From Shigella phage SF1-1, in sequence record PQ571307: a stretch of 64,000 nt of DNA; one strand, given 5' to 3'. A program made the position numbers and the translations under genes. Shown here piece by piece: positions 59,467 through 64,000 of the stretch. The notes below the pieces were generated by a model. That model made no database searches. It was not told the DNA's origin and saw only the letters and a list, made by a program, of their open reading frames with translations. Numbering within the stretch: the first letter of the stretch is position 1; each line of letters opens with the position of its first letter.

Positions 59467-59497
59467 AGAAAGGAGCCAAATGGCTCCTTTTCTTATT
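59467..59497. terminator. bidirectional rho-independent terminator
   Basis: Hairpin AAAGGAGCCAAATGGCTCCTTT flanked by A/T runs, between convergent ssb and tail-fibre genes. Confidence 0.7.
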
Positions 59498-61853
59498 TAT
59501 AACCGGAAGGAATGTTGTTATAATCAGAAAGTTTTGTGCAATACCTGAATAGGTAACTATTAGCTACTCCGCCTAATGTATTTGTTAATGTTGTTCCTGT
59601 TCCTGTAAGATTTGTGCATCCACTAAAGAAAGAAGATAATGCTCCACGTTTACCACAAACAGTTAACCCTGGGTTGTCATTAAAGATTTTATTAAAATCT
59701 GTAAGTCCTAAACAACCTTGGAATGTAGCTGTTAAAGAGGTCACTTTCGTTGGAATATTATCAAACATTCCTGCTGGAACTTCTGCAAGAGAGGTGCAAT
59801 CTTTAAAGGTGTAAGAATATCTTGTAACTTTTGACAGATTCTTAAATAAATCTGAAGGAATAGATGTTAAAGATGTACAACCTTCAAACGTGCTTGACAT
59901 TGTTGTCATTGAAGGAAATAAAGCATCACTGAATAATCCTTCAGGGATAGCTGTCAAACTTGTGCAGCCAGAGAAGATACCGCTTATAGATGTTCCGGTG
60001 TAAGATGTGTTACTAAAACAATCAGAAGTTATTCGTCTTAAGTTAGCACAACCTTTTAAGAATTGTGAGGCTGGGCTTGTAGAATAACTGATTCTATTAC
60101 CGCCCCAAAGTTCTAAAAGATTTGGGTTTGCTTCCATAGACACTTCCACACTATTAACTACTGAAGCACTTGCAAATTCAATAGCCAGTCTATATTCTCC
60201 TGCTGGATAACTATCCACTGTAGAGAAAGCTTTGTTTCTAAATATTACTTTACTTGAAGGAACTACAACGTCATCCACCTTAACTACAAAGTTAGCTGGT
60301 GTAACAGTACCCGATAAAGTTGGGAACGTAATTGCCCCATCTGCCGAGTGGTTGAAATATCCGTTTAGAACCGTTAAATTACTACTCGGAGATGGAGCTA
60401 ACTCCTTTCCCGCAACAGCATTCACCGTTAAATAAGAACTATCAGAAGCGGTAACAACACCTTGATACGTAGCTGTGCAACCAATCCTACAACCACCATC
60501 ACCAACACCAGTTATTACACCAGTTGTAGGATCTACTGTAGCAACATTAGGATCTGTAGTTGTATACTCAACAACCATACCAGGTAAGCTTGCTGCTCCT
60601 GTTGGTGTTATTTCTGCTACCATTGTTTGTGTTGTTCCTACATCCATCGCAGATAAGCTAGGAGTGTAAACGCTCAATGTTGAAGCATATCCTCCAGAGG
60701 TATCTGATAAAGTTGTTCCTTCAGCGTTTAAGGCTGTCATACCTGCATCAAAACCACCTTCTGCATGGAAAGTCATTAAACCAGTAGATGATATTGTCAT
60801 GTTTGCAGGGGCAGAAGAAGTGTATTTAATATTGAAAAGTTTACCTCCTTCTGGGCTAACAGAATGTGTCAACTGTTTAGTTCCACCTACAATACAAATT
60901 CCTAAAGAATCTGTAGTTAAGCCTGTTGCCAGAATATCACCCGTAATCACGGAGCTTGCTATTGGTGTGAATTTATTATAGTTTAGACCACTATTCAACA
61001 GATACGAGGCTTTCCCGTCTTTCCAAATACCGGAATAATACATATCCCCATTATAAACGAAAAAGGTTCCTTGATAACCTAATTGGTTAGTAACATCCAT
61101 ATTCAGCGTATGAACGCTTGTGAGCTTGTTTATATCCCAAGAACCCACTCCTTCAGGTTTAACTGGTTTTCCCACTTGGAGTGGATCTCCGCTCGCAGAA
61201 TCATATCCCAAACCTAAGTTTGCAGTGTAGTTCTTACCAATAGCCCACAAGGAATTATTGATCCCAACGAAAAAAGAGTGGCGGCTTGGTGGAAATTTCC
61301 ATGTTGAGAAACCTGCTGCAAAGGTGTCCAGTTTAGTGTAGGTTGTTTCTGTATTAGATCTAACATATAAGTAGTTTACTGTACCCGCGCCACCGGAGGT
61401 ATCTCCTACAACTATTGTCTGGGAAACTGTATTGATGTAATCTTTGACATACACTGTTTCAGTAGTGGATATCGTGGCATTGACAAAAGCGGTTGTTGTG
61501 TTATTATTACCTGCTAAACCTTTACTAGCTCCACAAACACGCAAGGTTCCCACATTGTTGACATAAGAGCATTGGTTGTAACCTGCATCAAAAGCAACTG
61601 CTGCGCTTGTTATCTGACGAGGAGTAGAAACTTCGTTAGTAGTGCTTGCACCTAAACTACCTACTGTGTTTTGACCCGATCCATAAAGAACACCACTATT
61701 CATTAACCAGAGAGTATTGTTATACCCTCCTTTAACCTCTTTAAGATTGGCTAAAGAAATAGTCCCTGTTATTACAGATGGAAAGCTGGTCCAAGTAGTT
61801 ACACATGCATCCGTACCACCTGCTGCTATAGATCCTACCAACCCTGCTGTCAA
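59493..61853 (-). CDS. tail fibre / adhesin with C-terminal BspA-type leucine-rich repeats
   Basis: 786 aa; Gly/Thr/Ser-rich beta-rich body; C-terminal repeats F.GCTSLT.IP..LF. Confidence 0.65.
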   Translation of the reverse strand: MTAGLVGSIAAGGTDACVTTWTSFPSVITGTISLANLKEVKGGYNNTLWLMNSGVLYGSGQNTVGSLGASTTNEVSTPRQITSAAVAFDAGYNQCSYVNNVGTLRVCGASKGLAGNNNTTTAFVNATISTTETVYVKDYINTVSQTIVVGDTSGGAGTVNYLYVRSNTETTYTKLDTFAAGFSTWKFPPSRHSFFVGINNSLWAIGKNYTANLGLGYDSASGDPLQVGKPVKPEGVGSWDINKLTSVHTLNMDVTNQLGYQGTFFVYNGDMYYSGIWKDGKASYLLNSGLNYNKFTPIASSVITGDILATGLTTDSLGICIVGGTKQLTHSVSPEGGKLFNIKYTSSAPANMTISSTGLMTFHAEGGFDAGMTALNAEGTTLSDTSGGYASTLSVYTPSLSAMDVGTTQTMVAEITPTGAASLPGMVVEYTTTDPNVATVDPTTGVITGVGDGGCRIGCTATYQGVVTASDSSYLTVNAVAGKELAPSPSSNLTVLNGYFNHSADGAITFPTLSGTVTPANFVVKVDDVVVPSSKVIFRNKAFSTVDSYPAGEYRLAIEFASASVVNSVEVSMEANPNLLELWGGNRISYSTSPASQFLKGCANLRRITSDCFSNTSYTGTSISGIFSGCTSLTAIPEGLFSDALFPSMTTMSSTFEGCTSLTSIPSDLFKNLSKVTRYSYTFKDCTSLAEVPAGMFDNIPTKVTSLTATFQGCLGLTDFNKIFNDNPGLTVCGKRGALSSFFSGCTNLTGTGTTLTNTLGGVANSYLFRYCTKLSDYNNIPSGYK

Positions 61854-62200: not shown

Positions 62201-62205
62201 TTCTG

Positions 62206-64000
62206 TTATCGTGTTACAACAACCATGTCCACGATATCACCCACACCAGGATACGTTAATTGCAAAATTGTTACTGCGTTAGCAGTAGTTGCTATTTCTG
62301 TATCATTTAGTGCTCCATAAGACGCATCTAGTGTAACCGTGTGTCCCGTTGTATCTTGAATCAAATAAATCATTGCTGAAAACGCTTTAGGTTTTGTAGA
62401 GCCAGTGACACCAGGCCATGCTCCAACTGTCAGAGCATCAGTTACTGTAACAACATACATATTGGAAGTTCCAGAAGGAGTCCAAGATGCTCCAGAGTTG
62501 GCAGTAGTTGTTTCAAGTTCCATGAAACCTGCTGTAACTCTAGTTGGTGTTATAGCTTCCGTAGGATCTGATCCTGATATTTCGATCCAGTTTCCATCAG
62601 ACCGACCATACGTCAAGCCGTCTTGAGGGGCTTCTGGTATACTAGGAAGAGTGCCTATAAGCGTCCATGTAGAAGAATCTGTTTTCTTAAACACTGCTCC
62701 AGTGGTAGTATTGAAGGCGTAATCATTGATAACACCGTCTCCTGCGACTGGATTAGTTGTTGCTACAAACCACTGTGCGCCGTCCTTACCGTTGGTCCCA
62801 TTAGTACCGTTGGTTCCGTTTGTTCCAGGATCACCCTTATCTCCTTTATCCCCTTTTTCACCTTTGTCGCCTTTAATACTTCCCATGTCAACAAAAGATG
62901 CGGAATTGGTGTCTTGATCGTAGGTATAGATGTAAAGATTACTAGTGTCTTCAGTTAAGTAGGCATCGCCATAGTTATTATAAACAGGGAGAGCTTCACT
63001 GTTCGGAACATGACCTTTAGCTGTAATTGATGTTCCTCCAAGACTGCCAACATTCATCCATTCCGTAGCATCTTGAACCCAAACATATAAATCATTATTA
63101 ATTTTATATGCATCACCCACTTCTCCGGTAGGAGGAAGTTCAGCTTCACTGTTCAGAACCCCGATAATATCTAAGCCTGATCCTGTTGCACCCACTGGTC
63201 CTTGTGGACCTAGTTCACCTTGTGGACCTCGCTCTCCTTGATCACCCTTGTCTCCTTTTGGACCTTTAAGTGAGGCAATAAAATCTACTTCTGTCCCTTC
63301 ATTACCAGCATCCAGCCAACTTTGATATGCAGATTTCCCTTCATCTCCATCTGTTCCATCAAGACCGTCTTTACCTGCCTCACCTTGTGGACCTTGAGGA
63401 CCAACAATATTACCCATGTTGACCCAAGCTGTCCCATTAGAGACATAAAGATTACCATTGATAGAATAAGCTTGACTTACGTTTTCAGAGTTTGGTTGTG
63501 GTAAGTTACTTGTAGAAGGCAAATCCCCACGATAATCAAAACCGTTGGCGTTAACACCAGGTGCTCCCTGTGGCCCTGTAGGACCAACATCACCTTTATC
63601 ACCTTTTATAGAGGTAAGAAAATCATAAACAGATCCTGTATTACCATCTGCCAACCATACCTCGTAAGCTGATTTACCTTCTGGTCCAAGAGAAGAAATA
63701 AGTTTCCAAACAGAACCATCCCAAGCGTAGATTACATCGCCTACGATATAACCATCCCCTGCAACGTTACCTGTGGATGGTAGTTCACTAGTGCTTGCTA
63801 ATGATCCTTTAATATTAAGTTGAGCACCAGTATCCCCTTTCAAAGAGGCAAGCCATTGTGCTTCTGTTCCAACAAAACCATTATCAAGTGCGATCTGATA
63901 AGCCGATTTACCAGCTTCAGGTATTGTTTCCGACAGATCATCAATTTGTTGCTGCATTGCCGTAAACTTGGCATTGATAATTGCTATATCATCAGCGGTC
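62206..64000 (-). CDS. tail fibre protein with collagen-like Gly-X-Y repeats (5' end probably beyond window)
   Basis: Gly-X-Y runs such as GPQGPQGEAGKDGLDGTDGDEG and GDKGEKGDKGDKGDPGTNGTNGTNG; reading frame stays open upstream of Met 63957 to the window edge. Confidence 0.75.
   Translation of the reverse strand, partial: TADDIAIINAKFTAMQQQIDDLSETIPEAGKSAYQIALDNGFVGTEAQWLASLKGDTGAQLNIKGSLASTSELPSTGNVAGDGYIVGDVIYAWDGSVWKLISSLGPEGKSAYEVWLADGNTGSVYDFLTSIKGDKGDVGPTGPQGAPGVNANGFDYRGDLPSTSNLPQPNSENVSQAYSINGNLYVSNGTAWVNMGNIVGPQGPQGEAGKDGLDGTDGDEGKSAYQSWLDAGNEGTEVDFIASLKGPKGDKGDQGERGPQGELGPQGPVGATGSGLDIIGVLNSEAELPPTGEVGDAYKINNDLYVWVQDATEWMNVGSLGGTSITAKGHVPNSEALPVYNNYGDAYLTEDTSNLYIYTYDQDTNSASFVDMGSIKGDKGEKGDKGDKGDPGTNGTNGTNGTNGKDGAQWFVATTNPVAGDGVINDYAFNTTTGAVFKKTDSSTWTLIGTLPSIPEAPQDGLTYGRSDGNWIEISGSDPTEAITPTRVTAGFMELETTTANSGASWTPSGTSNMYVVTVTDALTVGAWPGVTGSTKPKAFSAMIYLIQDTTGHTVTLDASYGALNDTEIATTANAVTILQLTYPGVGDIVDMVVVTR

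Follow-up and report, generated by a model that had tools for sequence, protein, structure and literature searches.

Probable recombinational exchange of a C-terminal cassette in TfpM1, the modular tail protein beside the collagen-like fibre TfpM2, at the end of the lateral-tail-fibre cluster of Shigella phage SF1-1

We analysed a 64,000-nt stretch of DNA from Shigella phage SF1-1 (sequence record PQ571307), referred to below as the window, and in particular its positions 59400–64000, which hold the two genes that close the lateral-tail-fibre cluster of a phAPEC8-like myophage. This region matched dozens of Phapecoctavirus (Stephanstirmvirinae) genomes in GenBank over its full length at 98–99% identity, the near relatives being ESCO5, ETEC-TG, dw-ec, DE16 and tuntematon. 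By nucleotide identity the window genome is thus assigned to Phapecoctavirus (phAPEC8-like), a well-known E. coli phage type. In annotated relatives the genes lie on the same strand in the order baseplate genes, short fibre and assembly protein, lipoprotein, colanic-acid-degrading tailspike, "tail fiber protein" (2025 nt) and "tail protein" (2673 nt), beyond which lies a convergent SSB gene. The two final fibre genes were named TfpM2 (the collagen fibre) and TfpM1 (the protein tipped with leucine-rich repeats, LRR) in a recent paper (PMC12695924), and we use these names here. An earlier reading of the window (the original prediction) had proposed a tail-fibre module at this place, and the assignment stands: PHROG tail families were matched at E = 0, the genes are annotated as tail fiber, tail protein or lateral tail fiber in relatives, and the synteny with tailspike, assembly and baseplate genes is conserved.

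TfpM1 is a single gene of 890 codons in relatives. In the window it is split by a 1-nt deletion into two open reading frames (ORFs), and the residue numbers used here are those of the intact protein (Table 1). The 5′ fragment encodes a conserved N-terminal M-F-P-I-P-I-F peptide and the first strands of a propeller. Sequence matches and the secondary structure of a model predict that residues ∼20–405 form an RCC1-like β-propeller. The Pfam RCC1 score was 23.7 bits in the window protein (cutoff 21.7) and reached 39 bits in homologues; the region matched RPGR, UVR8 and HERC2 in the PDB; and it was modelled as all-β over its whole length, with a pLDDT of ∼90 to residue 310 and lower values beyond. 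Two immunoglobulin-like (Ig) domains follow, the second of which (60415–60581) occurs in two variants, ∼70% identical, among relatives. The AlphaFold model of a full-length TfpM1 (P0121) had a pLDDT of 87.4, and its only disordered stretch, residues 584–588, lies directly after the junction with the C-terminal cassette described below. In an exhaustive search, the complete propeller-Ig scaffold was found in only a handful of 50%-identity clusters, all from this phage group.

Table 1. Features of the fibre locus (window coordinates; residues of TfpM1 refer to the intact protein).
Feature	Position	Strand	Remarks
Bidirectional terminator hairpin, common to TfpM1 and the convergent SSB gene	59468..59491	unstranded	distal cassette boundary; phAPEC8 homology resumes at 59471
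3′ ORF of TfpM1, 786 codons from TTG	59493..61853	-	residues 105–890 of the intact protein
Exchangeable C-terminal cassette, allele A	59496..60419	-	β-sandwich 60105–60377 and seven-repeat BspA-type LRR solenoid 59496–60104
Two Ig-like (Big_2) domains	60420..60938	-	Pfam Big_2
Predicted RCC1-like β-propeller, residues ∼20–405, interrupted by the frameshift	60951..62107	-	Pfam, PDB sequence matches, model
5′ fragment of TfpM1, 98 native codons, 6 out-of-frame codons and stop	61850..62164	-	phrog_11922 positions 1–97
Frameshift site, run of 4 G, 1-nt deletion at codon 99	61870..61873	-	GGGGG in ESCO5 and DE16; GGTGG in tuntematon
Terminator-like hairpin between both fibre genes	62184..62203	-	annotated terminator in ASO2A and phAPEC8
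3′ 1795 nt of the collagen-like lateral tail fibre gene TfpM2 (phi92 gp151 / phiTE gp241 family)	62206..64000	-	
C-terminal tip domain of the collagen fibre	62209..62571	-	conserved in compared relatives; widespread in tail fibres
Foldon-like motif IPEAPQDGLTYGRSDGNWIEISG	62572..62640	-	sequence match to the T4 fibritin foldon of 1v1h and of foldon-tagged spike constructs
Gly-X-Y tract 4, 11 triplets (GDK/GEK, then GTN units)	62773..62871	-	sole site of triplet-number differences
Gly-X-Y tract 3, 10 triplets	63175..63264	-	start of the only patch varying among relatives (residues 318–411)
Gly-X-Y tract 2, 8 triplets	63331..63402	-	
Gly-X-Y tract 1, 6 triplets, GDKGDVGPTGPQGAPGVN	63550..63603	-	

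A search with the 786-residue ORF retrieved full-length relatives at 55–98% identity, together with proteins (P0129–P0131, the last representing 112 sequences) that were 96–97% identical over the first 61% of the query only. Scaffold proteins with still other tails were also recovered. Tip A, the form in the window, consists of the β-sandwich and the LRR and was found in 35 phage records. Tip B, which also exists as a variant B2, is a β-rich module of ∼300 residues with the end ...GLKYYD, and was found at 95% identity or more in 31 records, phAPEC8 among them. Tip C combines a PKD-like domain with a canonical DUF285 domain, tip D (P0142) belongs to no recognisable family, and short forms of TfpM1 stop after the Ig domains. 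Further tips beyond A and B occur in metagenomic relatives, and one distant relative with conserved gene order has a canonical DUF285 tip instead. Tip B was found, 91% identical, on a different scaffold as well, namely a 939-residue Justusliebigvirus protein annotated as lateral tail fibre.

The breakpoints of this exchange were located by comparison with genomes that carry the other allele. Nucleotide identity to phAPEC8 is 95–100% down to position 60582 and drops to ∼70% over the second Ig domain, as far as 60415; homology is absent from 60415 to 59472 and is restored at the terminator hairpin. In phiWec190 a B-type Ig variant is joined to cassette A, with the crossover exactly between ...SSYLAVNAV and AGKELAP. 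The exchangeable segment is the last ∼0.94 kb of TfpM1, or ∼308 residues. Its GC content differs mildly between alleles (37.3% in cassette A and 44.0% in cassette B, against 40.3% in the scaffold), and no donor was identified. Among close relatives the N-terminal part of the protein stays constant while the C-terminus is taken by one of several modules without homology to each other, with defined breakpoints. We concluded from these alignments that the variation at the locus is a wholesale swap of the C-terminal cassette of TfpM1 and not slippage in the collagen repeats. Both the cassette nature of the LRR end and the frameshift had been missed by the original prediction.

The LRR region occupies the last ∼200 residues of the 786-codon ORF and comprises seven repeats of ∼27 residues with the pattern F-x-G-C-T-S-L-T-x-I-P-x-x-L-F, the last three being irregular. 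Two results weigh against assigning it to the BspA type. Taken alone, the window sequence fell below curated thresholds (no match to LRR_5; DUF285 at 13.1 bits vs. 25; TIGR02167 at 21.9 vs. 30), and a Foldseek search against the PDB returned nothing significant. The homologues were more informative. A phmmer search with the 218-residue LRR domain found 275 relatives with E-values down to 3e-40, many of them with PF13306 (BspA-type LRR_5) and/or PF03382, and among 64 aligned relatives, 28 matched LRR_5 and 22 matched DUF285. A profile made from the LRR alignment matched the BspA-like proteins 4fs7 (1.8e-30) and 4gt6 (8.9e-22) from Bacteroides/Faecalibacterium and TpLRR (4.7e-9) in the PDB. AlphaFold2 modelled residues 479–786 of the ORF as a β-sandwich followed by a solenoid (pLDDT 91.2, pTM 0.88). 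The tandem repeats of ∼23–28 residues and the curved solenoid of the BspA type were recognised. The LRR of tip A is of the BspA type, as had been predicted for the end of the second protein, and the call rests on homologues, profile and structure model. At the DNA level, Tandem Repeats Finder detected no repeats in the LRR coding region except a trivial 15-nt array; the LRR coding repeats are no substrate for slippage.

The LRR tip had also been described as unusual for a phage. In tblastn, relatives of the LRR domain were present in 59 of 50,697 phage records, and 35 of the 59 came from this lineage; the remainder were Klebsiella P2-like prophages, a few jumbo phages, a Synechococcus phage ("putative tail protein") and a Butyrivibrio virus. 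Among the predicted viral structures of BFVD, 19 proteins matched the LRR tip at E ≤ 0.001, many of them from uncultured gut phages and named LRR, BspA or 26-residue-repeat proteins. A metagenomic LRR homologue was located in the structural module of a crAss-like/SU10-type phage, beside a BACON-domain protein. Cultured phages rarely have the LRR tip, but BspA/LRR proteins are common in uncultured gut phages, and this tempers the description as unusual. Literature searches on BspA or LRR receptor-binding proteins of phages returned nothing relevant and no ligand-binding data for related phage proteins, and two papers (PMC12635073; PMC12210895) contained no information on either fibre gene. As a separate observation, gpI of the Klebsiella prophage ST16-OXA48phi5.4 (2547–5573) is extended to 1008 residues ("tail protein I") by many BspA-like LRR repeats. 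This fusion gave matches at 7–8 places per record in tblastn, within a group of near-identical Klebsiella prophages, and is an unusual fused baseplate adhesin.

We examined the split of TfpM1 in this genome. The plus strand reads CCCC at the frameshift site, the missing base belonging to a G5 run inside the propeller, and the deletion divides the gene into ORFs of 104 and 786 residues. The small ORF covers positions 1–97 and the large ORF positions 105–867 of PHROG 11922 (870 positions). Among the 60 relatives listed, the match to a 201-nt query across the site was 202 nt long in 59, the exception being BI-EHEC with 203 nt; the deletion is private to this genome (0/60). Frameshifts of the same gene were present elsewhere, in iGC_PHA_EC001 (codon 332) and BI-EHEC (codons 117 and 259). 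Both BI-EHEC insertions share the form GTG(A)GT, which resembles a systematic data artefact.

It is almost an even bet that the split is an error of homopolymer base calling or assembly and that the real phage has an intact 890-codon gene. A single G is missing from a run of five, the extra base is present in all 60 listed relatives, and odd single-base indels in other public records of the gene, such as those of BI-EHEC, look like data-quality problems. Over ∼44 kb aligned with DE16, however, no other single-base indel falls within a gene (further isolated ones are confined to ORF edges and intergenic DNA), which argues that the assembly is not generally error-prone, and accessory fibre genes are plausible targets of loss in laboratory propagation. 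We rate a true mutation and a homopolymer error as about equally probable. For annotation, and for host-range prediction based on receptor-binding proteins, TfpM1 should be treated as possibly non-functional in this genome until the base call is checked.

The gene anatomy given by the original prediction also needs revision, since the ORF 59493–61853 is only the downstream part of TfpM1 and the window ends inside the collagen fibre gene. The minus-strand ORF 62206–63957 stays open and in frame to the end of the window. In relatives the full TfpM2 gene encodes 674 residues and starts ∼230 nt past position 64000, leaving outside the window the first ∼77 of its 674 codons (as in ESCO5). PHROG 15437 ("tail fiber protein") covers the whole length of the ORF, which also passed the threshold for Pfam Collagen PF01391 (47.2 bits vs. 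a cutoff of 27.2; E = 1.8e-12). The collagen-like tracts reported for this gene are real, but the word "extended" overstated them: the four uninterrupted tracts total ∼35 triplets, or ∼16% of the protein. Tandem Repeats Finder placed 9- and 18-nt periodic arrays at 62789–62875, 63196–63240, 63382–63402 and 63589–63606, and they cover both stretches that had been noted as visibly repetitive, 62750–62900 and 63150–63300.

The N-terminal part of TfpM2 was examined in the ESCO5 orthologue (98% identical), the DNA lying beyond the window. Its residues 17–79 matched tailspike N-terminal anchors (9vvr, 9occ, 5w6h and 4oj5; E-values of 1e-13 to 1e-6), including those of CBA120 TSP3/4, and Tail_spike_N (PF18668) is recorded on a TfpM2 homologue. 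Three 26-residue GKSAY...SLKG motifs and 4–5 small β modules alternate with the collagen tracts. The foldon-like motif IPEAPQDGLTYGRSDGNWIEISG, recognised by sequence alignment, is a probable trimerisation element, and together with the fibre context it suggests that TfpM2 forms trimers. The last ∼120 residues matched PHROG 4549 and the phiTE tail fibre in the PDB (9cuy chain g / 9mjn; E = 5e-8). This tip family was found in 420 phage records, including phi92 gp151 at 55% identity, and PF26209 (Phage_phiTE_241_C) is present in a TfpM2 homologue. TfpM2 is a common fibre of enterobacterial phages, known in kind, with ordinary collagen repeats. By analogy with phi92 and phiTE, it would sit in the virion as a baseplate-attached fibre.

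These results are best read, with a probability of roughly 0.7, as the end of a multivalent-adsorption cluster in which a trimeric collagen fibre stands beside a modular TfpM1 whose cassette is swapped by recombination. The trimeric TfpM2 fibre would run from a tailspike-type anchor through a short coiled coil to the GKSAY motifs, β modules and collagen tracts, and then to the foldon-like motif and the tip, the four short tracts serving as thin spacers. TfpM1 would be a modular binding protein, probably not trimeric, with its conserved N-terminal peptide as a docking element and the propeller and two Ig domains as a constant scaffold or arm. To this arm the ∼308-residue binding cassette would be attached via the disordered linker, and cassette A, with its β-sandwich and LRR solenoid, may bind a ligand on the host surface via the concave face. 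Diversity would arise when recombination replaces the whole cassette between the end of the second Ig domain and the downstream terminator. The 1-nt deletion would separate the docking peptide and first propeller strands from the remainder of TfpM1; if the base call is right, the phage would lack a functional TfpM1 and depend on its other fibres.

We infer that TfpM1 is an accessory host-recognition protein from its location in the fibre cluster, the occurrence of tip B on annotated lateral tail fibres, the allele pattern and the distribution of tips among groups of Wecvirus. In the last of these, phiWec179 carries tip B and phiWec188 and phiWec190 carry tip A; the two groups are reported to have different host ranges and to depend on different accessory host factors (flagella vs. 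YhaH), with the R1 core lipopolysaccharide used by both (PMC12695924). TfpL also differs between the groups, and the difference in host range is therefore not attributable to TfpM1 alone.

Several points weigh against the host-recognition role. The presence of TfpM1 in the virion and its binding of a ligand are predictions, and the authors of the BASEL collection regard it as unclear how genes and lateral fibres correspond (PMC8594841). Trimeric fibres do not typically have propeller, Ig and LRR folds. E. coli K-12 MG1655 served as isolation host for phages of both tip types, so that the tip is dispensable for infection of K-12 and may have no influence on host range. Frameshifted copies of the gene occur in several records, and this tolerance speaks against a strict receptor role; the frameshift in this genome may itself be a homopolymer sequencing error.

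A competing but unlikely reading is that TfpM1 is not a receptor-binding protein for the bacterial host and acts instead as an accessory adhesin or decoration (for mucus, particles or animal surfaces) or as a structural brace. Such a role has been proposed for Ig-like phage decorations, and BspA-family proteins mediate adhesion for bacteria. The combination of propeller, Big_2 and LRR is a domain set of adhesins rather than of trimeric fibres, and the PHROG neighbours of TfpM1 include a "structural protein with Ig domain". The compatibility of both tip types with growth on K-12 fits this reading too, and frameshifts in at least three independent genome records suggest that the gene is dispensable in the laboratory. 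On the other hand, TfpM1 keeps a syntenic place within the tail-fibre cluster, tip B recurs on annotated lateral tail fibres of phi92-like phages, swapping tips at one constant junction is characteristic of host-recognition proteins, and tip type co-varies with host-range group in Wecvirus.

For the LRR cassette itself, we consider it a long shot that it is a protein-recognising tip, directed at an outer-membrane or appendage protein of E. coli or at a ligand of gut mucus or epithelium. If so, it would stand apart from the other fibres of these "Swiss-army-knife" phages, whose tips and enzymes are directed at glycans. The ∼50:50 polymorphism of LRR and β-rich tips in Phapecoctavirus would then represent a balanced switch between two recognition modes, and TfpM1 would be the first characterised LRR-based, propeller-scaffolded receptor-binding protein of a phage.

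The original prediction had located the source of diversity in the collagen gene, where slippage or recombination in repetitive DNA would alter fibre length and switch host range. We compared fibre length using the 1795-nt TfpM2 segment as query, with 60 relatives listed out of 70 matching. The segment was identical in length to the query in 55 of the 60. Changes in triplet number do exist and are in frame: in alignments of tract 4, ASO2A had one G-T-N triplet less (−9 nt) and iGC_PHA_EC001 two G-D/E-K triplets less (−18 nt). These were the only collagen copy-number variants among the listed relatives, and they alter merely 1–2 of the 35 triplets, far from the tip. The other length differences were a 76-nt tandem duplication in SKA64, which lies outside collagen sequence in the region of the first GKSAY motif (∼63836 in the window) and breaks the frame, and a span differing by 1 nt from the query in two Ro121 records. 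The SKA64 record annotates a truncated fibre product of 549 residues.

Substitutions among seven aligned TfpM2 proteins cluster in residues 318–411 (∼62997–63278 in the window), that is, in tract 3 and the next β module, and this mid-shaft patch may be a small mosaic exchange within the shaft. The C-terminal tip was invariant in the six relatives compared. The collagen-domain length of collagen-like proteins of E. coli prophages does vary (PMC3368898), and to that extent there is a precedent for the proposed mechanism. In TfpM2 the DNA arrays are short and imperfect (Tandem Repeats Finder scores of 30–61; 72–91% matches). We concluded that tract slippage occurs, but that it is rare, tiny and remote from the tip. 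With near-invariant tracts and a tip found in hundreds of phages, length variation of the collagen repeats as a driver of host-range switching is highly improbable.

Least probable of all, and rejected, is that the two ORFs of TfpM1 are joined by programmed ribosomal frameshifting or yield two polypeptides by termination-reinitiation at TTGA (61850–61853), where the upstream stop overlaps the downstream TTG, given one continuous ORF in every relative, the lack of a slippery heptamer (X XXY YYZ) at this position and of a recognisable Shine-Dalgarno sequence ahead of the TTG, and a split inside a propeller blade that is unlikely as a designed feature.

Cassette exchange in TfpM1 thus stands as our reading of the locus, and the value of the locus lies in a tractable experiment rather than in surprise. 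The propeller-Ig-LRR protein is an uncharacterised variant of the theme of modular phage binding proteins. The broad host range of phAPEC8-like phages has been ascribed to co-expressed fibres with individual roles unknown (PMC8594841), and such phages are isolated repeatedly for therapy and biocontrol. TfpM1 offers a cassette system of two or more alleles built on an unchanging scaffold, and its precisely mapped junction is both an engineering site and a natural experiment. The LRR solenoid, a putative phage recognition module, is widespread in uncultured gut phages, for which a tractable coliphage example would be useful.

Some further observations concern the records and the rest of the window. 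Records labelled Campylobacter phage B15, Acinetobacter phage vB_AbaM_ABPW7, Klebsiella phage ZCKP1 and Pseudomonas phage PsgM04F matched the coliphage fibre module at 89–98% nucleotide identity, and the host labels of all four warrant scepticism. In some relatives, e.g., Mt1B1_P17 (∼480 extra bases) and nepoznato, an "endonuclease" gene is annotated in the matched region or next to it, probably as the result of a homing endonuclease insertion that the window lacks. No tRNA genes were found across positions 1–64000. The sign of the GC skew flips near 24 kb, which fits a switch in transcription direction, and at 23938 the window has a 9-nt tandem duplication, CAAAACATC, relative to phage DE16, in frame and inside an open frame. 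The SSB-like protein downstream of TfpM1 (58549–59436, plus strand) ends in ...PPMDFDDDIPF, an acidic tip that the SSB of the host E. coli also has. Two genes upstream, a nucleotidyltransferase (57501–58094, plus strand) has a similar tail, ...RLEEDDIPW, and both proteins may compete for SSB-interacting host proteins.

Among known systems, TfpM2 is closest to the fibres phi92 gp151 and phiTE gp241 of rV5-, phi92- and phAPEC8-like myophages. Its C-terminal 190 residues are 55% identical to phi92 gp151 and its C-terminal 112 residues match the phiTE fibre (E = 5e-8), whose C-terminal part is unresolved in the cryo-electron microscopy model (PMC11972413). The genes occupy the same position in the cluster after a WcaM-type tailspike, and the proteins have a Tail_spike_N-type anchor in common with tailspikes of CBA120 and similar phages. 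We found no substantive difference, and TfpM2 is an orthologue. The prophage proteins EPclA-D of E. coli O157 likewise have Gly-X-Y tracts between phage-fibre modules and a trimerising C-terminal cap. As in TfpM2, their collagen domains change in length by whole triplets of residues (Ghosh et al., 2012; PMC3368898). These domains are 27–322 residues long and strongly variable among strains, whereas TfpM2 has four tracts of 18–33 residues that are almost invariant; the flanking domains also differ, with no PfN or PfC Pfam matches in TfpM2.

The LRR of TfpM1 resembles BspA-type LRR surface proteins (PF13306; DUF285/TIGR02167 "PARCEL"; 4fs7, 4gt6 and TpLRR 6mlx). Those proteins are secreted, whereas TfpM1 has no signal or anchor; its LRR is fused behind a phage propeller-Ig scaffold, has seven repeats only and is too divergent for the curated thresholds. 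In the Klebsiella Reipivirus ST16-OXA48phi5.4 and in uncultured gut phages, a BspA-like LRR is likewise found on a baseplate or tail protein or within a structural module. The carriers differ there, being a P2 gpI-type wedge protein or stand-alone proteins of 300–380 residues, with ∼32–37% identity to the TfpM1 LRR. The closest parallel to TfpM1 as a whole is with modular receptor-binding proteins with swappable tips, such as the lateral tail fibre of Justusliebigvirus (JohannJBalmer, alia), which like TfpM1 has a constant N-terminal part and a sharp junction. The Justusliebigvirus fibre and the phAPEC8 TfpM1 share tip B (91%), an Ig region and an N-terminal M-[FY]-P-I-P motif. They differ in the scaffold, which in TfpM1 is predicted to be an RCC1-like propeller and not a trimeric shaft, whereas the Justusliebigvirus fibre has no propeller and carries other inserted domains.

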